From: Limisphaerales bacterium
GTDB taxonomy: Bacteria > Verrucomicrobiota > Verrucomicrobiia > Limisphaerales > AAA164-E04
Reading direction: 5' to 3'
Length of the DNA: 64,000 nt
Assembly: GCA_024761205.1 (NCBI GenBank)
Contig: JAMASS010000013.1
Location: 19,802 to 83,801, forward strand
Below, piece after piece: positions 2 through 8,216 of the stretch; position 1 is the first letter of the stretch, and each line of letters begins with the position of its first letter. A model generated the notes under the pieces. The model ran no database searches. It was not told the DNA's origin and saw only the letters and a list, made by a program, of their open reading frames with translations. Made by a program: the position numbers and the translations under genes.

Positions 2-601
2 CCCGACGTTGGCGGGCTGGCGGCTTATCTTGTCAATGAAACCCATTGCGGGGGCGAAAACCAATGCCTTGCGCAGAACGAATTTTGGTTAAAAAAGATG
101 GTGGGCCGCCAATGCTGCGCCCGGCCCGAGCTGGCCAAAGAAATTTTGCAGGAAGCCTCAATTGCCCTGGTGTTCGCCTTCCGTGAATACAACCCCGTCA
201 GGGGCGCCTCGCTGCGGACCTTCGCCTTCCACAAAATCCGGGGCCGGCTCAAGGACTTCTTTCGCTTCCAGGATTCCATCGGCCAATACGTTTCCCTGGA
301 GGAGGCAATCGAAACGGACGGAGGGACGATGCGGCGGGTGGACCTGCTGCTGGAAGGCGCCCCGCCGCCGACCGACCTGGAGGTGGACGCTCACCTGATT
401 CTGGCTTGTCTGAACCTGGAAGCCGTCGTTGCTCGTCTGCCCCGGCAACAAGCACGGGCCGTGCGCCTTCGCTTTTGGGAAGACCGGACATTTTTGGAAA
501 TCGCCCGTGCCCTGCGTGTTTCGAAACCGCGAGCGCACGCGCTCGTCCAAACGGCGATTGCGACCCTTCGAAGGCAACTGCGGAAGGAGGAAATCCTCTG
601 A
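2..601 (+). CDS. Alternative sigma-70 family factor (FliA/WhiG/SigB-like regions 2 and 4), 5' end uncertain
   Basis: Region 2-like YNPVRGASLRTFAFHKIRGRLKD and region 4 HTH LPRQQARAVRLRFWEDRTFLEIARALRVSKPRAHAL. The frame is open from the window edge (nt 2); first ATG is at 98. Confidence 0.85.
   Translation, partial: PDVGGLAAYLVNETHCGGENQCLAQNEFWLKKMVGRQCCARPELAKEILQEASIALVFAFREYNPVRGASLRTFAFHKIRGRLKDFFRFQDSIGQYVSLEEAIETDGGTMRRVDLLLEGAPPPTDLEVDAHLILACLNLEAVVARLPRQQARAVRLRFWEDRTFLEIARALRVSKPRAHALVQTAIATLRRQLRKEEIL
33..594 (+). repeat. Copy A of duplicated sigma-factor segment
   Basis: Near-identical to 3374-3661 except that copy B lacks nt 144-417. Confidence 0.9.
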
Positions 602-666
602 TGTCGCCTCGCGTTTTGCGCCCGTCGTCCCCCGGTGAAAAAAAGTCCGCTGAAAATCGCCCTGAG

Positions 667-710
667 GGGGTTAACGCCGGGCCGTTTGTGGCTATAACAG
701 TAATATGGCT
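667..710 (+). promoter_or_regulatory. Putative promoter for Cys-rich peptide genes (module 1)
   Basis: TTAACG(671-676)-16 nt-TATAAC(693-698) inside GGGGTTAAC..GGCCGTT..GGCTATAACA.TAAT. Conserved with the same spacing at 3760-3803 while the flanks diverge. Confidence 0.55.
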
Positions 711-808
711 ACCGTGCGTTAACCGCCGGAAAATTTCCGAGTCGGTCCGGCGTTCGTCGATGGGTTAATGGACTGTAACGGATAATCGTTTGGAGAAAGA
801 GATAGATC

Positions 809-1060
809 ATGAAGAAACTATTTGGAAAAGCCGCCTTGGCGGCCGTGGCGACGGGCTTCGCCGTCGTCAACATCGTCGTCGCCGACAGCAGCGGCAGTGG
901 AAGCTGCAGCAACAGGTGCGAAATTCCAACCGACATTGGTGTTATGAAAGCTTGTTGCCCTTCAGAGAAGACACCGTGCTGTTTGGAATGCGAAACTGAA
1001 TTGGGAACGGACAGAATAGCTACATGCAAAACGGACGAGAGTAAGTGTGTATGTCCTTAG
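809..1060 (+). CDS. Secreted Cys-rich miniprotein 1 (10 Cys)
   Basis: Sec-type leader MKKLFGKAALAAVATGFAVVNIVVA, DSSGSGS linker, C-x3-C-x11-CC-x6-CC-x2-C-x11-C-x6-C-x-C. GGAG upstream; two paralogs in window. Confidence 0.88.
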   Translation: MKKLFGKAALAAVATGFAVVNIVVADSSGSGSCSNRCEIPTDIGVMKACCPSEKTPCCLECETELGTDRIATCKTDESKCVCP

Positions 1061-1123
1061 CTTAGGTTAAATACTTTATTTAGGTCTGCTTTCTTGGTAT
1101 TTCTTTTAACCAAAGTAAATCAT

Positions 1124-1399
1124 ATGAAGAAAAAATTATTTGGGAAAATAACTTTAGCAGTAACGGCAGTGGCCTTCGGTGTTGTTGTCAATGTGATTGC
1201 AGATGGCAGCGGCAGCGGCAGCGGATGCCCGGATGAGAATTTCTGCACTATTTCTATGCCGGGTGGCACGGGGACTTCCGGTTGTTGCGCCAAAGATGAG
1301 TCACCATGCTGCATCACTTGTGACACTGAAATGGGGCCTCGCGGGTTTGCAGGTTGCGATTCCGACGAAGATAAGTGCTCTTGTGACCGTTATGGTTAG
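1124..1399 (+). CDS. Secreted Cys-rich miniprotein 2 (10 Cys)
   Basis: Leader MKKKLFGKITLAVTAVAFGVVVNVIA, DGSGSGSG linker, C-x5-C-x12-CC-x6-CC-x2-C-x11-C-x6-C-x-C. ATG 1124 chosen by alignment to paralogs. Confidence 0.88.
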   Translation: MKKKLFGKITLAVTAVAFGVVVNVIADGSGSGSGCPDENFCTISMPGGTGTSGCCAKDESPCCITCDTEMGPRGFAGCDSDEDKCSCDRYG

Positions 1400-1479
1400 T
1401 TTAATAGATATGTCGCCTCCGCAGGAGAAAATCACCTTAAGTCCGACAGGCTGCTAGAACATTCTTTCTTTTAGATTGC

Positions 1480-2373
1480 GTGACTGAAAGACAAAAAAAG
1501 CTATTGTTCGTTGGCGTGGTTTCTGTTCTGGCAATCGTCTTTACGACGATAACCAAGTTCAGCGCAACGTGGCGAAAACAGCAGGCCATTGCAAGAGAGG
1601 AAGCACGTGAGGACAGTTGGAAGTCGGCTTCCTTTATCAACTTGACGGATTTTCAGAAGGTGGCTGGGGGTGTTGATGAGATGATGTCTAAGGGGACTAA
1701 TGTTCACCTGCTGAGCGAACAGCAGATGGTAGCTTTGAAGAGCCGAATTCGAAGTTGCTTGGATGCCTACAGTCAAGGAGATTTTGGTAAATATCTCGAT
1801 TTTCGAATGCCCTGCGGCAGAGGTATTGTGACCTTTGATGAAGCAGAGATCAAAAAATATAAGTACAATTTACCAAGCCGTGGTAAATTGCAGGAAGTCA
1901 TAGAGAAAATTCAAGCCAACAGAGACATTCCAAAAACATCGCTGAAAGAACTACAGAGATACTCTCTTTCGAATTCACTAGATGTTTGGAAATATCAATG
2001 GATTCTTGGTGGCCTCATACGCTACACAGCATCAGGAGGCAGAGTCTGGTGCACAGATTGTTGGACTGGTTTTTCCCCTGATGAGAGTTGGGTTCATATT
2101 AACGAATTACCTCAGTCAGCAGCTCAGTTGGCCAGACAGAACGGCGATTCTGGGATTTTTACATCGCCTCCAGACCTTAAACTGTCGCCACCGAGCGGAA
2201 AGACTGATTCAACCCCCAAGATGTATGCGGCCGTCCGTCTTCACATGAACACGAAACTCAAAGTATCCGCTCACCCCGTATTTGTTGTCTTTGTTTTGAC
2301 AACCAAGCCCGAGTGCTGGCAGCCAATGTCCTTCGCCTCATGTTATTATATGGGCACAAAGTATATGTTTTGA
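1480..2373 (+). CDS. Membrane-anchored partner protein 1 (unknown family, CxDC motif)
   Basis: Basic N-terminus plus a single hydrophobic helix. Motifs YSxGDF..FRMPCG, WKYxW, CxDCWxGFSP, DSTPK, LTTxPExW are shared with 2449-3342 and 4279-5190. Confidence 0.85.
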   Translation: MTERQKKLLFVGVVSVLAIVFTTITKFSATWRKQQAIAREEAREDSWKSASFINLTDFQKVAGGVDEMMSKGTNVHLLSEQQMVALKSRIRSCLDAYSQGDFGKYLDFRMPCGRGIVTFDEAEIKKYKYNLPSRGKLQEVIEKIQANRDIPKTSLKELQRYSLSNSLDVWKYQWILGGLIRYTASGGRVWCTDCWTGFSPDESWVHINELPQSAAQLARQNGDSGIFTSPPDLKLSPPSGKTDSTPKMYAAVRLHMNTKLKVSAHPVFVVFVLTTKPECWQPMSFASCYYMGTKYMF

Positions 2374-2448
2374 CTGAAGAGACGTCATGCAATGGTTCGG
2401 TCAATACAGCTTGTCTGAGAAATTTCAATGTAACCGACTTCGAAAAAG

Positions 2449-3342
2449 GTGGTGACAGAGAAACAAAAGCGGGTGTATCTGGTCGTTGGGGTGGTTGCCA
2501 TAGGCATTGGATTAATATTAATGTCCAAGTTCAAGACTGCTTGGGATGACCAACGGAACCAAAGTCTGGGTGAATCGATCGAAGAAAAGTGGGCTCTAAA
2601 ATCTCATGTAGCCCTAACCAACCTCACGAAAATAGCCCCGGCCCTTGATGGCATCTTGGCTCAGGCCAACCAACCGGCATCTTCTCAGTCCGAAGCAAAC
2701 CGCCGCACTCAAAAGTCAGATTCAAAATTGTCTGTTGACTTACAGCCTTACAGCCGGGGCGACTTCGACCAATTCGTGAAGTTCCGCATGCCTTGCGGCA
2801 AAGGCGTCAACGTGACCTTCAATCAAAATGAAGTGAAAAAATACGTGGATAATTACCTGCCAACCGTCGAAAAAATGCGCCAGAACTTCCATCAAATCCC
2901 ATCCGAACACCAAGCTGCCTTCGAAGGTTATTCTTTGGATAGCGAAATAAAAGTATGGAAATACATGTGGATTATGGCGGGCCAAATGAAATACGAAGTG
3001 TCGGGAGGCCGCGCTTTTTGCAATGATTGCTGGCTGGGGTTTTCTCCGGAACAAAGTTGGGTCAGTTTAAGCGAACTCCCCGTTTCGGCGACGCAACTGG
3101 CGAAAGAAGCCGGCCATCTTGAATTTTCGCGAGACCCGTCGGACCTAGAGTTAGCTCCTCCGCGTAGGAATCGTGATTCCACACCCAAGCTCTACGCCGC
3201 GGTTTGTTTGCATGCCAATGTCGATTCAAAATATGGCCCCCGTCCGGTATATGTCGTCTTTGTTCTGACCACCAAACCGGAAGACTGGGTGCCTATAGGT
3301 TTATCCGATGGATACTATCGCGGCATGGATTACATATTTTAA
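2449..3342 (+). CDS. Membrane-anchored partner protein 2 (internal compensated frameshift)
   Basis: Paralog of 1480-2373; residues encoded by ~2668-2748 are in a shifted frame relative to the paralogs. Confidence 0.82.
   Translation: MVTEKQKRVYLVVGVVAIGIGLILMSKFKTAWDDQRNQSLGESIEEKWALKSHVALTNLTKIAPALDGILAQANQPASSQSEANRRTQKSDSKLSVDLQPYSRGDFDQFVKFRMPCGKGVNVTFNQNEVKKYVDNYLPTVEKMRQNFHQIPSEHQAAFEGYSLDSEIKVWKYMWIMAGQMKYEVSGGRAFCNDCWLGFSPEQSWVSLSELPVSATQLAKEAGHLEFSRDPSDLELAPPRRNRDSTPKLYAAVCLHANVDSKYGPRPVYVVFVLTTKPEDWVPIGLSDGYYRGMDYIF
2717..2811 (+). repeat. Tract identical to 4543-4629 plus an 8-bp tandem duplication (TTACAGCC x2 at 2740-2755)
   Basis: Direct sequence comparison. Confidence 0.9.
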
Positions 3343-3363
3343 CCGGGCAAACAAAAGAGTGTC

Positions 3364-3692
3364 ATGCAACGCATCAATGAAACCCATTGCGGAGGCGAAA
3401 ACCAATGCCTTGCGCAGAACGAATTTTGGTTAAAAAAGATGGTGGGTCGCCAATGCCGCGCCCGGCCCGAGCTGGCCAAAGAAAGGAAGCCGTCGTTGCT
3501 CGTCTGCCCCGGCAACAAGTACGGGCCGTGCGCCTTCGCTTTTGGGAAGACCGGACATTTTTGGAAATCGCCCGTGCCCTGCGCGTTTCGAAACCGCGAG
3601 CGCACGCGCTCGTCCAAACGGCGATCGCGACCCTTCGAAGGCAGTTGCAGAAGAAGGAAATAAGGCGACTGCAGGAGGAGGGAAACCTGTGA
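3364..3692 (+). pseudogene. Sigma factor copy B, inactivated by a 274-bp internal deletion with frameshift
   Basis: Junction GAAA|GGAAGCCGTC at 3484/3485 joins copy-A nt 143 to 418; region 2 is lost. Confidence 0.9.
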
Positions 3693-3759
3693 CACTTGCC
3701 TTTGGATTTTATGCCGCCGCCCGGTCCTCCCGACGAAAAAATCAAAAATCGCTTCGAGA

Positions 3760-3803
3760 GGGGTTAACAAAAGGCCGTTGACGGCTATAACAATAATGAG
3801 GCT
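3760..3803 (+). promoter_or_regulatory. Putative promoter for Cys-rich peptide gene (module 2)
   Basis: TTAACA(3764-3769)-16 nt-TATAAC(3786-3791); homologous to 667-710. Confidence 0.55.
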
Positions 3804-3900
3804 ATCATAACGTCAACGCCGAAGATCGTCACCGAGGCGGTTTCGGTGGACGTCAGATGGGTTAATCGTCAACAAAGAAAAAAACCAAAACGTTACAACA

Positions 3901-4185
3901 ATGAAGAAACTATTTGGAAAAGCCGCCTTGGCGGCCGTGGCGATGGGCTTCGCCGTCGTCAACATCATCGCTGGTGACACTAGCGGCAGTGGAAGCTGCT
4001 GCGGTGGGTATTGCATGATAAGCGTGGATGGCAACAAGGCAGAAGCTTGTTGCCCAGCGGGCACTATCCCATGCTGCCGCAGCTGCATCGACGACGGTGG
4101 TCTTTTGGGTAAGGATGTAGTCATATTGTTTGCTACGTGCGTCGGTCCAGGGGCCACTTGCGACTGTGCTACTTTACGCATGTAG
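3901..4185 (+). CDS. Secreted Cys-rich miniprotein 3 (11 Cys)
   Basis: Leader nearly identical to peptide 1 (1 mismatch in the first 66 nt); CC-x3-C-x11-CC-x6-CC-x2-C-x17-C-x6-C-x-C. Confidence 0.88.
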   Translation: MKKLFGKAALAAVAMGFAVVNIIAGDTSGSGSCCGGYCMISVDGNKAEACCPAGTIPCCRSCIDDGGLLGKDVVILFATCVGPGATCDCATLRM

Positions 4186-4208
4186 GCAGAGGAAGGAAAT
4201 GCATTGCG

Positions 4209-4247
4209 AAGGGTGAGCTTAGAATCTATTTAAGCTCACCCTTTTAT
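4209..4247 (+). terminator. Intrinsic terminator/attenuator between peptide 3 and partner 3
   Basis: Perfect 13-bp stem AAGGGTGAGCTTA / TAAGCTCACCCTT, 9-nt loop, T-rich tail. Confidence 0.75.
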
Positions 4248-4278
4248 TAAAAACAGGTCCTATTTTACAAATCTCACT

Positions 4279-5190
4279 ATGGCAGAAAAACGAAAGAAGC
4301 TTCTTTTCGTCGGAGCAACAGCGGTGTTGGCCGTTGGTTTCTGGGGGTTGATGAAATTTGGCTCATATTGGAAATTACAGAGAGCCATCGCGCGCGTTAA
4401 GCAAACTGAGGAAAACTGGCGACAAACCTCCCTCATCAGCTTGACTAATCTTCAGGAAGTCGCCGCTTCCATCGACACCATGATGGCGCGAGGCACCAAC
4501 GTCCATCTGCTCAACCGACGGCAGACGGCTGCTTTGAAGCGGCAGATTCAAAATTGTCTGTTGACTTACAGCCGGGGCGACTTCGACCAATTCGTGAAGT
4601 TCCGCATGCCTTGCGGCAAAGGCGTCAACACTATATTCAACAAAGAGGAACTGGCAGAATACAAGCGAAGGCTTCCGACGCCTGAACGGGTTGCTCAAGT
4701 CCTTGCGGAAAACCCTTCAGGGGTTCGCGAGGAATATGGTGATGAAGTTGCTGATGAACTACGACATTATTCCCTCTCTACGCCCATGGATATCTGGAAA
4801 TACATGTGGATGACCGGAAAATCAAGGCGCTTCAAAGAATCTGGAACCAAAATTTATTGCATGGATTGTTGGACTGGCTTTTCGCCGGATCAAAGCTGGA
4901 TTACTGTCAGCGAATTACCGCTCTCGGCGTGGGTGTTGGCCGTTAGTGCCGATTACGCGGCGGTTAACAGATTTAAGTCCGACACGAAGCTGGCGCCACC
5001 GAAAGGAAACAATGACTCGACGCCCAAAATGTACGCGGTGACAAGATTGCACGTAAAAATTCCTTCTGATGATCCTGATGTTCCGCCCCATCCCTACTAT
5101 GTATTATTTGCTTTAACAACCAGGCCCGAGTGCTGGATTCCTTTATCCTTTGTAGTATCTTATGATAAAATGCCTCAGTACATATTTTGA
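4279..5190 (+). CDS. Membrane-anchored partner protein 3
   Basis: Paralog of partners 1 and 2 with all shared motifs (CMDCWTGFSP). Confidence 0.85.
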   Translation: MAEKRKKLLFVGATAVLAVGFWGLMKFGSYWKLQRAIARVKQTEENWRQTSLISLTNLQEVAASIDTMMARGTNVHLLNRRQTAALKRQIQNCLLTYSRGDFDQFVKFRMPCGKGVNTIFNKEELAEYKRRLPTPERVAQVLAENPSGVREEYGDEVADELRHYSLSTPMDIWKYMWMTGKSRRFKESGTKIYCMDCWTGFSPDQSWITVSELPLSAWVLAVSADYAAVNRFKSDTKLAPPKGNNDSTPKMYAVTRLHVKIPSDDPDVPPHPYYVLFALTTRPECWIPLSFVVSYDKMPQYIF

Positions 5191-5194
5191 CATC

Positions 5195-5656
5195 ATGCGA
5201 CGGTTGGGGCAATACAAGCCGCGGTTTTTCTCCACGTTCAAGTGGTTTATTGTCATCGGGTTGACGGGGACGGCGGTGATGAAGCTGGCCACGGCGCCGT
5301 TTGACGCCGAGTTCAATGCGCCTGACGCCGCTTTGCCCTGGTTCACTCAGAAGCAATTGCTGTTGAACGCGGCTTTGGCGGAGTTGGCGGTGGCCGCGTT
5401 GTTTCTGGCGCCTCAGTCGGCGAATTCTTGGCGTTACGGCGCTTTGTTCGTGCTTTCGACCTTGTTCCTCTGTTACCGGACCGCGCTAGCGCTGGTGGGC
5501 GCGTCCTGTTCGTGCGCGGGGAAGCTTTCGACGAATCCCTGGGTGGCCGGAGGGTTGTGGGCGTTTCTGATCGTCGCCCTGGCCGGCGGCTTGATCGGGT
5601 TGTTTCTTGACGAGGACGAGGAAGGCGCGAGGCCCGGCGCCGCTCAGGCTTCATGA
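5195..5656 (+). CDS. MauE/DoxX-like membrane protein
   Basis: About 4 TM helices, AELAVA helix, and a CSCAG motif resembling the MauE CGCFG motif. ATG 5195 lies 4 nt after the partner 3 stop. Confidence 0.65.
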   Translation: MRRLGQYKPRFFSTFKWFIVIGLTGTAVMKLATAPFDAEFNAPDAALPWFTQKQLLLNAALAELAVAALFLAPQSANSWRYGALFVLSTLFLCYRTALALVGASCSCAGKLSTNPWVAGGLWAFLIVALAGGLIGLFLDEDEEGARPGAAQAS

Positions 5657-6687
5657 AGTCCGCCGCAAAGCGGAATCTTTTTCTCTTTGGCGTTCCTGGC
5701 AAGGTGGGCGGCGCGGCCACGAAGATCAGCGCTTTGCTGCGGTTGTTGCGGGAGGATTACCGCATCACCGTGGTGTTGCCCAAGGTCCAATGGATGAAGG
5801 ACCGCTACATTCGCCGCTTGGCCGGGGAGTTGGGTTTCGCCTGCATTTTGAGGAAAAGCCTTCCGGCCCGGACGGAAGGCGATGCGCTGGCGATTTGCGA
5901 GTTGGACTTTTTCACGTCCGGGACGGCCGAGCGGGTGAAGCGGGCGGGGCTGCGGTTGTTTTGGTCCAACGAAATGATGTGGGCATTCAAGGGAGAGCGC
6001 GAGGCCGTCAGGAAAGGATGGATCGACAAGGTGTTGTTTGCGTCCGAGTTTCAAGCCCGAGAATTTGCGGAGCTTTACGCGGGCGTGCCGCAAGCGGTGA
6101 CAGGGAATTATATTTCGCCGGACGAATTTCGGTTTAAGGAGCGGCGGAATGCGGCGTTCACGATCGGCCGTTTGTCACGACCTGATCCGGTGAAGTTTCC
6201 GGCGGATTTTCCGGTCTTTTACGAAGAGCTTGGCATTGGGGACGCGCGGTTCCGCGTCATGGCGTGGGACGCCCAATTGCGAAAAATCTACTCGTGGCAT
6301 CGGTTTGACGCCCGTTGGGATCTCTTGGCGATGGAGAAGGAAGGGACGGAGAAGTTTCTGCATTCGCTGGATCTCTTCGTGTATCCGCTGGGGCATCGGT
6401 TTCTGGAGTCTTGGGGGCGTTCAACCGTCGAAGCGATGTTGACGGGGGCCATTCCCGTCGTGCCGCGCGGGCATCAGTTTCACAAGTTGCTGGTTTCGGG
6501 AGAAAGCGGATTCCTTTGCGGAGCATTCTCGGAATACTTTGATTGTGTGCGGGAACTTCACGCTAATTATCCGTTGCGGCGGCGGATGGCGGAACGGTGC
6601 CGTCGCCATGCGGTGGAGGCTTTGTGCCGAGCGGAGAGCCATCGGGAGGTCTGGCTTTCGGCGTTGGATTTTGAAGGCGGCGCATGA
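5653..6687 (+). CDS. GT-B fold glycosyltransferase (GT4/Glycos_transf_1-like)
   Basis: N-terminal VGGA; IGRLSR; LDLFVYP..ESWGRSTVEAMLTGAIPVV (E-x7-E motif). ATGA overlap with the upstream gene. Confidence 0.85.
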   Translation: MKSAAKRNLFLFGVPGKVGGAATKISALLRLLREDYRITVVLPKVQWMKDRYIRRLAGELGFACILRKSLPARTEGDALAICELDFFTSGTAERVKRAGLRLFWSNEMMWAFKGEREAVRKGWIDKVLFASEFQAREFAELYAGVPQAVTGNYISPDEFRFKERRNAAFTIGRLSRPDPVKFPADFPVFYEELGIGDARFRVMAWDAQLRKIYSWHRFDARWDLLAMEKEGTEKFLHSLDLFVYPLGHRFLESWGRSTVEAMLTGAIPVVPRGHQFHKLLVSGESGFLCGAFSEYFDCVRELHANYPLRRRMAERCRRHAVEALCRAESHREVWLSALDFEGGA

Positions 6688-7406
6688 ATTACTGTTATTG
6701 GAGCATCGGCGTGGGGCGCCGGCGGGCGTCGCTGCAAGCGTGCGTGAATTCCGCCCGGCAAGCCGGCGTTTTTCGCGAGTTTCATGTTTTCAGCGATCAC
6801 CCTCTGAAGGACTGCAACACTTATGACGCGATGACCGCGGAAGCCGTGGAAGGGATCGAGAGTTTGTTGTATATGAAGGCCGGTTTGTCCAAGCTCTCTT
6901 TCGATTGTTTTATCTGGATCGATCCGGCGAGCCGGTTTTGCCGCAATCCCAACGGCCCCTTGGCGGCGTTGAATTCCGCGCCGATTCACGTGCCGCTGGA
7001 GTTTCCGGTGGATGAGAAGCCTTCCGGATTTTCCCTGGACGGATTGGCAGCTGAAGCCTACGGCAGACTCTTTACCGAGAACGGCGTTTACAACCGGGTT
7101 TATTATGCTCGCGCCGCGTTCTGGATCGTAAAGCGGGCGGCGATCGATGCGGTGTTTGATTGGGCCAAACGGTTCATGGCCGCGGCCGAGGAAGCGGGGC
7201 ATCGCCTTGATGAACGATTCGCGATCAGTTACGTCACGCAGTTGTTAGGCGCGGATCCGGAGCGGCATACCTGGCGGCAGCGGCCGGATCTTTGGAGTCC
7301 CGATAGCGGGCCGGACGCCGCCGAGAAGGGATCCGCCATCTTTTTGGAGAAGCCGACGGAGGTGCCGGCTTTTCCTCCGCAACGAGCGGCCATTTCGTGC
7401 TTGTGA
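6684..7406 (+). CDS. Hypothetical protein, possible GT-A-fold glycosyltransferase-like
   Basis: YCYWSI N-terminal strand, FHVFSD, FIWIDP (degenerate DxD position), DERFA. ATGA overlap. Confidence 0.5.
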   Translation: MNYCYWSIGVGRRRASLQACVNSARQAGVFREFHVFSDHPLKDCNTYDAMTAEAVEGIESLLYMKAGLSKLSFDCFIWIDPASRFCRNPNGPLAALNSAPIHVPLEFPVDEKPSGFSLDGLAAEAYGRLFTENGVYNRVYYARAAFWIVKRAAIDAVFDWAKRFMAAAEEAGHRLDERFAISYVTQLLGADPERHTWRQRPDLWSPDSGPDAAEKGSAIFLEKPTEVPAFPPQRAAISCL

Positions 7407-7442
7407 ATGGGAATCGTCAATGGCGGGTTGAAAGGAAGCTTT

Positions 7443-8216
7443 ATGAAAAAACCGAGAGAAGCTTTTACGTTGATTGAGTTGTTGGTGGTGATCGCCATCA
7501 TCGGCATTCTGGCGGGGTTGTTGCTTCCTGCGCTTTCATCTGCCAAGCAAAAGGCCAAGCGCATCGTTTGCGTCGGCAATTTGAAACAACTCATCTCTGG
7601 CGCGCTGATGTACGCGGACGACGATCGTTATCAAAGCCTCACGCCCAAAGTGGACATCGATGATAATGACTTGAACTGGTTGCGCCGGGGCTATGTGGAG
7701 GATCTTCGGATCTTTGTCTGTCCCGCCACGCGGAATATGGTTCGGGGGGACATCGTCGGCGTCTCTCCTCATTCCGGGCAGAAGGGTCTGGTCGATCTCA
7801 TCAATCTGGCCGGCGGCACGGGGCGGGTGAACGGCATGAGCTACGGTCTCTTCGGTTTCGTGGGCTATAACGTGCCGGTCTGGTCGCAGATTCCCGTGCC
7901 CGGCGGCTGGCGGACGATCAACGGCATCCGCAAGAATCTCAACAATGTGCAGACTTACGTGAAGCATCACAACGCCTTCGGACTGAAAGGAACTGTTCCG
8001 GGACCGAGCCGGATGTGGCTCTTGACCGATAATCAGGCCTTGGGCTTCTTCGATCATTACCCGGACTCTGAAGACAATCATGGAGAAAAAGGCGCCAACA
8101 TCAGTTTTTGCGACGGGCACATCGAGTGGGTTTCCCGAAACGAGTTCATTTATAGCAATGAACTTTCCGAGGATGAAGGACGGACGGGCATCCCCGTGCC
8201 TTCGCACAGCCCTTGA
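7443..8216 (+). CDS. Prepilin-type N-terminal cleavage/methylation protein with C-terminal H-X9-DG-like motif (PVC-type)
   Basis: [52 protein letters not shown]. Confidence 0.9.

Follow-up and report, generated by a model that had tools for sequence, protein, structure and literature searches.

Three ten-cysteine miniproteins of a Limisphaerales genome as candidate disulfide-rich cargo of a module with a MauE-family protein and a membrane-anchored partner

What might a bacterium do with a set of small, putatively exported proteins in which ten cysteines are fixed and the loops between them vary? The question is raised by a 64,000-nucleotide stretch of a Limisphaerales bacterium genome (assembly GCA_024761205.1, contig JAMASS010000013.1, positions 19,802 to 83,801 of the forward strand; hereafter the window), near whose 5′ end a first-pass annotation, made from the letters alone, had noticed three miniproteins that share a cysteine scaffold. 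We hold with moderate confidence that these are Sec-exported, periplasm-folded, disulfide-rich cargo of a gene module of the order Limisphaerales, in which a MauE-family membrane protein oxidises the peptide and a partner protein binds its cognate peptide. Most of the functional information is carried by the operon context (partner, MauE, glycosyltransferase, prepilin-like and sigma genes), which was absent from the first-pass annotation.

Are the three open reading frames (ORFs) genes at all? They lie on the + strand at 809..1060 (miniprotein 1, 83 amino acids (aa)), 1124..1399 (miniprotein 2, 91 aa from the ATG at 1124, chosen as start within a frame that is open over 1094-1399) and 3901..4185 (miniprotein 3, 94 aa), and the ORF list, an alignment and a regular-expression search agree on a Sec-like leader, an SGSGS linker and a 10-Cys core in each. 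Aligned with MAFFT they have 33 invariant columns, including M/KKLFGK, SGSGS and the ten Cys, and their common plan is MKKLFGK, a hydrophobic stretch, D/GD-x-SGSGS and the ten invariant Cys (C33, C37, C49, C50, C57, C58, C61, C73, C80 and C82 in miniprotein 1 numbering). The observation of three scaffold-sharing, Cys-rich ORFs is confirmed, and the scaffold called invariant holds for the ten aligned Cys, with the amendment that miniprotein 3 carries an eleventh (CC at 33-34). The spacings described as exact (CC-x5-P-CC, x2, x6 and x1) recur in all three; the first Cys loop is x3, x5 or x4, and the long loop is x9+A+x, or x15+A+x in miniprotein 3. When the pattern CC.{5}PCC..C.{11,17}C.{6}C.C was run over the six-frame translation of the whole genome (9,882,786 residues) it matched in three places only, the three miniproteins, which excludes a chance origin of the scaffold. 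The loops are indeed divergent, with core nucleotide identities of 0.44-0.52 and proportions of nonsynonymous differences (pN) in the core of 0.43-0.49. As the ten Cys codon columns persist while synonymous sites in the core are saturated, the miniproteins are under selection in the + frame, and on the same ground we dismissed the opposite-strand ORFs that cover this DNA. Judged from their sequences, the three ORFs are genuine genes.

That they are instead spurious ORFs or an assembly artefact is close to refuted. Two DNA runs from a single study, labelled 'sponge metagenome', contain 0.97 and 0.96 of the words sampled from this region, and one of them may be the source of this DNA; no RNA run was among those listed as containing it. 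Public contigs from these runs do break at the repeated leader and sigma segments, so that joins there depend on the assembler, but single contigs from both runs cover 822-2746 and 3914-4572 without differences, the Cys columns are kept over saturated synonymous sites, and homologs with the same neighbours occur in other genomes. At the level of contigs, which leaves rare variants beyond reach, the two runs show no differences inside the peptide or partner genes; the sole differences listed fall at 3447-3626, in a sigma gene remnant, and are probably due to cross-matching with its paralog.

By inspection, the N-termini resemble Sec signal peptides, as had been proposed, with a Lys-rich n-region (MKKLFGK), a hydrophobic core of ~13 residues and small residues at -3/-1, giving the candidate cut sites VVA/D, VIA/D and IAG/D. 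If the precursors are cut after VVA, VIA and IAG, mature peptides of 58, 65 and 69 aa follow, as stated at first pass. Homologs in other families of the order have textbook leaders, e.g. ...PANA/A and ...AFA/G. A set of peptide relatives (P0056-P0069) is called with a conserved, hydrophilic N-terminal extension of ~37 residues (MTIREA...GRQPG) before a KLKKLF leader; the three window miniproteins are without this extension.

Is a source of disulfides encoded with the peptides? The gene at 5162..5656 (+) specifies a 164-aa MauE-family membrane protein with a CSC motif between its last two hydrophobic segments. All 7 aligned MauE-like homologs from copies of the module match PF07291 at E<=0.1 (best E 1.3e-9), and a sister copy on another contig of this genome, C78, reaches 38.9 bits, above the Pfam cut-off. 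K41, E74 and C116-x-C118-x-G120 (C116-S-C118-A-G120 in the window) are invariant in 7/7 of them, and the positive-inside rule would place the CxC on the periplasmic side. A 2026 preprint (10.64898/2026.03.05.709764) describes MauE as a generator of disulfides like DsbB: E. coli without dsbB regains motility and PhoA activity when given MauE from either of two phyla, and CXC mutants lose activity. The CXC of the active site is in the loop that joins helices 3 and 4 on the periplasmic side, and the conserved residues are a Lys in helix 1 and a Glu in helix 2, proposed as quinone site, and an F and a G after the CXC. K41, E74 and the CxCxG of the module proteins are the residues reported there as conserved or as active site. 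In this genome, which is 95.1% complete, models for DsbB, VKOR, Thioredoxin_4 and DSBA found no match, and the same models matched in control genomes; its MauE matches are the two module copies and one weak match on contig C34 with an internal stop. A search of the MauE-like set with NCBIfam gave nothing useful. We read the MauE-like proteins of the genus, from their sequences, as probable 'private' oxidases that adjoin or are fused to their clients. In four loci of the genomes G005-G008 (L106 311-2008, L107 1169-2905, L108 1-2651 and L109 655-2247) a MauE-like CXC domain is fused N-terminally to large periplasmic parts with a C-terminal anchor, in proteins of 530-883 aa.

As a MauE-type disulfide generator is encoded adjacent to the peptides, we favour disulfides over metal thiolates. 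The alternative named at first pass, that the peptides are periplasmic metallothionein-like metal binders whose thiols stay reduced, is very unlikely. It would account for the high Cys content (10 Cys in ~58 residues in the window, and 15 in a precursor that counts 73 aa with its signal peptide, at the short locus L046) and for the missing DsbA and DsbB matches in the genome, but most frameworks have an even Cys count with fixed spacings, a CXC disulfide generator belongs to the module, and neither a metallothionein nor any other family was matched. The peptides have no family match in Pfam, NCBIfam, PADLOC or PHROGs; the match to a known family, such as metallothionein or a ferredoxin-like protein, that would have told against the first-pass idea is absent at E<=1 beyond noise in Pfam and NCBIfam and at significance among Protein Data Bank (PDB) sequences. 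A search of the ESM Atlas with the peptide returned unnamed clusters only (score 0.83). The known bacterial metallothioneins are cytoplasmic.

What might bind the peptides? Three paralogous partner genes accompany them on the + strand: partner 1 at 1480..2373 (297 aa; N-terminal membrane anchor, periplasmic helical/beta domain and a CTDCW motif, from alignments and the AF2 model), partner 2 at 2449..3342 (297 aa) and partner 3 at 4279..5190 (303 aa; C194-x-x-C197-W). They are 42-45% identical, and in each of them ~7 residues precede a single hydrophobic helix, behind which lies a large C-terminal domain. The partner model is confident (predicted local distance difference test (pLDDT) 94.2, predicted template modelling score 0.87; AF2, 30-sequence alignment); a long helix forms its N-terminus and a sheet its C-terminal part, and there is a helical subdomain as well. 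No match to the partners was found in Pfam, NCBIfam, PADLOC or PHROGs, and a PDB sequence search with their profile gave noise only. When the partner 3 domain (45-303) was co-folded with miniprotein 3 (26-94), the pair scored 0.71 and the best of 3 controls 0.27, on a scale whose mark was reached by 58/80 solved complexes and 2/110 mismatched pairs, a calibration that holds only roughly, given alignments of our own. Between runs at least 69% of contacts agree, and the peptide chain has a pLDDT of at least 75. The model supports binding of the peptide by the partner. Among others, partner residues 182-192, C194 and C197 and miniprotein residues C33, C50, C51, C62, C80 and C89 lie in the predicted interface, which is invariant among the three window partners in 7/50 positions, compared with 76/259 overall; this low conservation in the modelled interface fits cognate-specific recognition.

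In a maximum-likelihood tree of 27 partners the grouping follows the Cys framework of the neighbouring peptide, not the genome, on long branches (support 92/88 for framework B and 100 for C, E and F; framework A hangs on one weak branch of 52/83, present in 58% of bootstrap trees). Each of the three window partners has a one-to-one relative in the genome G001, which holds three partners per peptide at each of two loci. More partners than peptides is the pattern expected of retained immunity-type genes. We read the partner as a cognate-specific holder, and within this reading there is a nearly even chance that it neutralises a bacteriocin-like peptide or gives immunity-like protection from it. 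In that case the module would be a bacteriocin class of Verrucomicrobiota not known before. An adaptor that links MauE to the peptide in folding or oxidation is a somewhat smaller, still serious possibility.

How far does the association of these genes extend? The partner profile finds 53 proteins at E<=0.001 among 1.84 billion representatives, and a peptide profile from seven sequences finds 17 unnamed proteins at E<=0.01 among 5.8 billion, two of them the window's own, so that both families are rare in protein databases, and both are unnamed in Pfam and NCBIfam. A profile from the three window sequences had returned only the window's own two called proteins among the 5.8 billion. Partners occur in whole genomes of 8/61 relatives including this one, in 6/10 other genomes of the genus, in 41/401 genomes and 25/165 genera of a Limisphaerales sample, and in 2/401 genomes of a phylum-wide sample (this genome and G035, both of the same order). 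In the samples searched, the partner family and the module are restricted to the order Limisphaerales; the nearest named relative is a chromosome titled 'MAG: Limisphaerales bacterium'. The peptide leader family is present in 7/11 genomes of the genus.

Synteny was scored in 27 short loci around partner matches and in 20 extended loci from other genomes, which are largely the same genomes as the short set. In 15/27 short loci, of which L059 is doubtful, an ORF upstream on the same strand combines a Sec-like leader with 4 or more Cys, and 17/27 have a MauE-like ORF. The extended loci contain a Cys-rich small ORF with Sec leader in 13/20 cases, a MauE-like gene in 13/20, a directly flanking prepilin-like gene in 7/20, a glycosyltransferase in 6/20 and a conserved gene for a 240-aa protein in 5/20; in the remaining 7/20 the peptide is not detectable. 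The filter for small ORFs passes 128 six-frame segments in the present 4.94-Mb genome, or 0.013 per kb per strand, a background that comes from one genome only while the related genomes are not independent, and against this background the association of peptide and partner is far above chance level. Across the order the conserved partner gene follows unrelated Cys-rich cores with 6-10 Cys in at least six frameworks. The framework of the window, C-C-CC-CC-C-C-C-C, recurs in G001, G469 (two tandem copies; L087) and G520 (L103), whose 10-Cys peptides share a CPSGxYxC-like N-terminal start and x6 before the ninth Cys; the G001 copy is an ortholog, and G469 and G520 belong to other families of the order.

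Taken together, we propose that the adjacent extracytoplasmic function (ECF)-type sigma factor may drive expression, as its position suggests, and that the Lys-rich hydrophobic leader would take the precursor through Sec and be cut before the GS linker. The MauE CXC protein would then make the disulfides, five per peptide, its service to these peptides being suggested by synteny, and the ~300-aa partner, held by one N-terminal helix, is predicted to bind the Cys-rich core of the cognate peptide. The glycosyltransferase, the 240-aa protein and the prepilin-like protein, whose genes are co-inherited in part of the order, might act in modification of the peptide, with the Ser/Gly linker as one possible site, and in its passage through the outer membrane; these last steps are speculation.

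Several results weigh against this proposal. The window's own MauE copy scores 21.5 bits, under the Pfam cut-off of 27, and MauE-like genes are present in 9/11 genomes of the genus, with up to 9-11 matches each, so that adjacency may partly reflect a habit of the family. The ORFs of the module (2-8216) include no ABC transporter, dedicated exporter or leader peptidase. The mature window peptides are acidic (roughly counted, their net charge is -2 to -7), whereas antimicrobial peptides are typically cationic, and the peptide alone was modelled poorly (AF2 pLDDT 46.7 from 4 sequences). Co-inheritance of neighbouring genes would alone give a partner tree ordered by framework. The periplasmic domain of the partner is, from its model, probably NTF2-like; Foldseek with this model returned 0 matches at E<=0.001 in the PDB, and the best VIA-align rows, nearly all NTF2-like, have Z of 5.0-6.4, under the tool's caution level of 8 (4xzz_A, the Csd6 C-terminal domain, Z 6.4, rmsd 4.2, 125 aligned; 3rob_A, Z 6.3, rmsd 4.1, 116 aligned), with NTF2-like leads in the ESM Atlas at TM 0.26-0.35. 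Two loci, L101 and L102, contain tandem partner-like arrays without peptide or MauE. Finally, the CxxC(W) motif, found in the partners of 7/13 peptide-linked loci, is absent in 6/13, which makes a general thiol-relay role of the partner unlikely. In the two arrays (L102 6252-10235 and L101 6881-8843) two partner-like paralogs without CxxC alternate, in ~2.6-2.9 Mb genomes of another family.

Could the partner nevertheless be the missing DsbA-like oxidase, a non-thioredoxin protein whose CxxC relays disulfides from MauE to the peptide? MauE probably acts via an intermediary protein, according to the preprint (10.64898/2026.03.05.709764), and the genome has no DsbA-type match. Among the 30 closest members of the partner family at least 90% have CxxCW, and in the co-fold C194 and C197 of partner 3 are predicted to lie in the interface beside C62 and C89 of the peptide. 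The absence of the motif in 6/13 peptide-linked partners and its reduction to CC in two others speak against such a relay, the fold leads are NTF2-like rather than thioredoxin-like, and the Cys pair could equally be a structural disulfide. We consider a relay of this kind improbable; if it operates, the partner would be a periplasmic oxidase of a new kind. A catalytic role of CxxC common to all partners was rejected, as the motif is absent in the 6/13 loci, and a thioredoxin-fold oxidoreductase of the DsbA or MauD kind was rejected both for this and for the lack of a thioredoxin-like family match; among the fold matches listed for the partner there was no thioredoxin fold.

The proposal of periplasm-folded, partner-bound cargo leaves a place for the genes that follow MauE, all on the + strand. 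A 344-aa GT-B (Glycos_transf_1-like) glycosyltransferase is encoded at 5653..6687; it scores 23.5 bits against a Pfam cut-off of 26.4, and its ortholog in G007 35.1 bits. The 240-aa protein of no known family (6684..7406), syntenic in the five extended loci noted above, has no Pfam or NCBIfam match, and a PDB sequence search with its profile gave noise only. The gene at 7407..8216 encodes a 269-aa prepilin-type protein with an N-terminal methylation motif, of the H-X9-DG / DUF1559 kind (Pfam N_methyl 32.1 bits and NCBIfam IV_pilin_GFxxxE, both above cut-off; pre_pil_HX9DG 18.5 against a cut-off of 19). The next gene, speA, was taken as outside the module. The peptides at loci with a glycosyltransferase (L087-L090, L100 and L103) are mostly Ser/Gly-rich directly after the leader, and those at loci without one (L086 and L091-L095) are without a Ser/Gly-rich stretch, in a small sample of related genomes; these sequences hint at the Ser/Gly linker as a glycosylation site. 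We rejected the idea that the peptide is the precursor of a ribosomally synthesised and post-translationally modified peptide (RiPP), as the glycosyltransferase is the sole modifying enzyme in the module and the leader is Sec-like.

The prepilin-like gene raises a further possibility, that peptide and partner are assembled with its product into a pseudopilus or type IV-like fibre, as accessory subunits or as tip factors, and that the glycosyltransferase decorates this fibre. It directly flanks the module in the window as well as in 7/20 extended loci, and in two genomes MauE and a prepilin-like protein share one open frame. Loci with peptide, partner and MauE alone are however common (L086, L093-L095), DUF1559 prepilin-like genes are so numerous in these genomes that adjacency weighs little, and the peptides themselves have no prepilin motif. 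We give a fibre role a very slim chance. The single open frames in question (L029 6010-7440 and L031 4196-5728) contain MauE, a prepilin N-methylation motif and a DUF1559 start, and are either fusions or adjacent genes without a stop between them.

How do leader and core come to differ so much in their conservation? The constant-leader, variable-core pattern is real and wider than the first-pass annotation saw, the same leader being found with other Cys frameworks in the genome and the genus. Profile searches and ORF lists revealed three more sites in this genome, on contigs C78, C21 and C79. On C78 the leader is followed by a longer GS linker and a different 8-Cys core, and then by a partner, a MauE-like gene and a prepilin-like gene. 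The set on C21 is similar, with a 5-base deletion in the GS tract of the peptide gene, and at the end of C79 there is a leader only. Compared with the C78 copy, the leader frame on C21 (L005 ~1485-1768) runs into a stop, and the core, still intact and Cys-rich, is in a different frame; the gene may be a slippage variant or have decayed to a pseudogene, or the assembly may be in error here. On C79 (L006 ~1176-1376) a long G/C homopolymer-like run with masked or N bases stands beside the cut-off leader at the contig end, probably an assembly edge.

The pattern had been taken to suggest diversifying selection by a host or competitor, and this part of the interpretation is not supported by the comparison of substitution rates, in distinction to the reality of the genes, their Sec-like N-termini and the contrast of leader and core. 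By the Nei-Gojobori method, the proportion of synonymous differences (pS) between miniproteins 1 and 3 is 0.13 in the leader (pN 0.068) and 0.80 in the core (pN 0.475), and between the C78 and C21 peptides it is 0.115 in the leader (pN 0.023) and 0.753 in the core (pN 0.371). In both testable paralog pairs the core pS is saturated while the leaders are nearly identical, and dN/dS of leader versus core is therefore uninterpretable. What the contrast reflects is a mosaic history in which the leader underwent gene conversion or cassette exchange; the loops may in addition be under positive selection. The leaders of miniproteins 1 and 3 are 92% identical in DNA and more alike than the non-coding DNA just 5′ of them, which is only patchily similar. 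A comparable patch exists in the partner genes, where 2747-2844 and 4565-4662 (partners 2 and 3) are 87% identical over 98 bases, the first 65 identical by eye, between proteins that are ~40-45% identical outside it; this is probably a gene-conversion tract. From the sequences, leader likeness and partner patch together point to short-tract gene conversion or cassette exchange, and in our reading recombination or gene conversion at the 5′ end accounts, at least in part, for conserved leaders in front of hypervariable cores.

Do known systems work in this way? By analogy, the module would work most like glycocin clusters, with a further resemblance to the MauE-assisted maturation of the Cys-rich subunit of methylamine dehydrogenase. 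In the glycocin clusters of Firmicutes described in PMC6405829 (sublancin, sunA-sunT-bdbA-sunS-bdbB plus sunI, and pallidocin) a small Cys-containing precursor is likewise encoded together with a dedicated generator of disulfides in the membrane, the DsbB-like BdbB, and with a glycosyltransferase, and the immunity protein there is small and anchored in the membrane. In the Limisphaerales module, however, the leader is Sec-like and not double-glycine, a SunT-type ABC transporter/peptidase is lacking, the putative oxidase is MauE and not DsbB, a thioredoxin-like BdbA is missing, the peptides have 8-10 Cys versus 4-5, and the host is diderm. The glycosyltransferase is a weak, Glycos_transf_1-like match versus the SunS-like enzyme, and both peptide glycosylation and antimicrobial activity are hypothetical here. 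Membership in the glycocins was rejected, given no double-glycine leader, no ABC peptidase and no SunS-type enzyme identified in the module. With the MauE of methylamine dehydrogenase it shares the four-helix membrane protein, a CXC predicted to face the periplasm, the Lys and Glu and a gene beside a small Cys-rich, putatively periplasmic client, whereas the MauA, MauB, MauD and MauG context is absent, the residue after the CXC is A or L in most module copies versus the usual F, and the neighbour is the putatively NTF2-like partner and not the thioredoxin-like MauD. From NTF2-like (SnoaL/cystatin-like) domains such as 4xzz_A and 3rob_A, its best structural matches at scores under the caution level, the partner differs in an extra helical subdomain, a long anchor helix and the lack of a sequence family match.

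The peptides themselves recall conotoxin superfamilies, and also defensins and plant Cys-rich peptides, in their conserved signal, fixed Cys framework and hypervariable loops. In conotoxins, as here, the signal is conserved even at synonymous sites and the mature region is divergent at synonymous sites too. There is no homology, and the bacterial peptides differ in a GS linker in place of the propeptide and in an operon-encoded partner and oxidase. Closer at hand, E. coli STa-type peptides are Sec-exported as pre-peptides and oxidised in the periplasm to compact multi-disulfide peptides, with no known dedicated oxidase or partner gene and no known sequence or framework similarity to the miniproteins. 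Searches of the literature on MauE/MauD, glycocins, Verrucomicrobia Cys-rich peptides or DUF1559 pilins and sponge symbionts, paper supplements aside, found no description of the module, which we read as a so far undescribed form of dedicated oxidative-folding peptide cluster.

Against whom might the peptides be directed? The sponge label of the two runs, the hypervariable cores behind a constant leader and the acidity of these cores, unlike classical antimicrobial peptides, would all suit host-directed effectors that act on the sponge or its cells as mimics or ligands, like legume NCR peptides or animal toxins, with a partner that only folds or holds them. This is an improbable reading, though one compatible with the mechanism proposed above, from which it differs in target alone: the module is present in 41/401 sampled genomes of the order, the export route across the outer membrane is only hypothetical, and Pfam and PDB sequence searches found no similarity to any eukaryotic Cys-rich family. 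More broadly, the module may be an order-wide Limisphaerales system for hypervariable, conotoxin-like secreted peptides, in which the Cys framework co-evolves with a non-thioredoxin, NTF2-like partner (immunity or relay), a private MauE oxidises without DsbA, DsbB or VKOR, and new cores arise by recombination behind the leader. In a sponge symbiont, such a system might supply cystine-rich peptides of the sponge type from a bacterial source, or its peptides might be used as weapons between competing symbionts. As a whole we regard this picture as tentative and unlikely to hold in every part. To our knowledge, disulfide-rich hypervariable secreted peptides have rarely been described in Gram-negative bacteria; they are a hallmark of animal venoms, defensins and plant signalling. 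Three things make the module of interest: its compact multi-disulfide scaffolds form a family whose loops vary naturally; it would allow the newly proposed MauE pathway of oxidative folding to be tested in a lineage without matches to classical Dsb proteins; and its partner, modelled with high confidence and of no known family, is predicted by co-folding to bind the peptide.

At the 5′ edge of the window, upstream of all the genes above, lies the sigma-70 family, ECF-type sigma gene (2..601, +; Pfam Sigma70_r2 and Sigma70_r4 both pass the cut-off, and NCBIfam TIGR02937 sigma70-ECF gives 59 bits where 42.9 are required), whose 5′ end is beyond the window edge and which continues upstream in L065. 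We rejected the partner or the peptide as an anti-sigma factor, as only ~7 residues precede the membrane helix in the window partners and peptides and there is no cytoplasmic domain. A repeat search identified an internally deleted copy of the sigma gene at 3374..3661 (+), in which 33-143 recurs as 3374-3484 at 97% and 418-594 as 3485-3661 at 96%; with a copy this similar, the third peptide-partner set must have arisen by segmental duplication or have been homogenised with it later. In the otherwise divergent DNA 5′ of miniproteins 1 and 3 there are conserved islands at ~690-760 and ~3790-3850, GGGGTTAAC ... GGCTATAACA.TAAT and GATGGGTTAAT. A simple sigma-70 promoter scan did not flag these islands, which may be promoter or operator elements.

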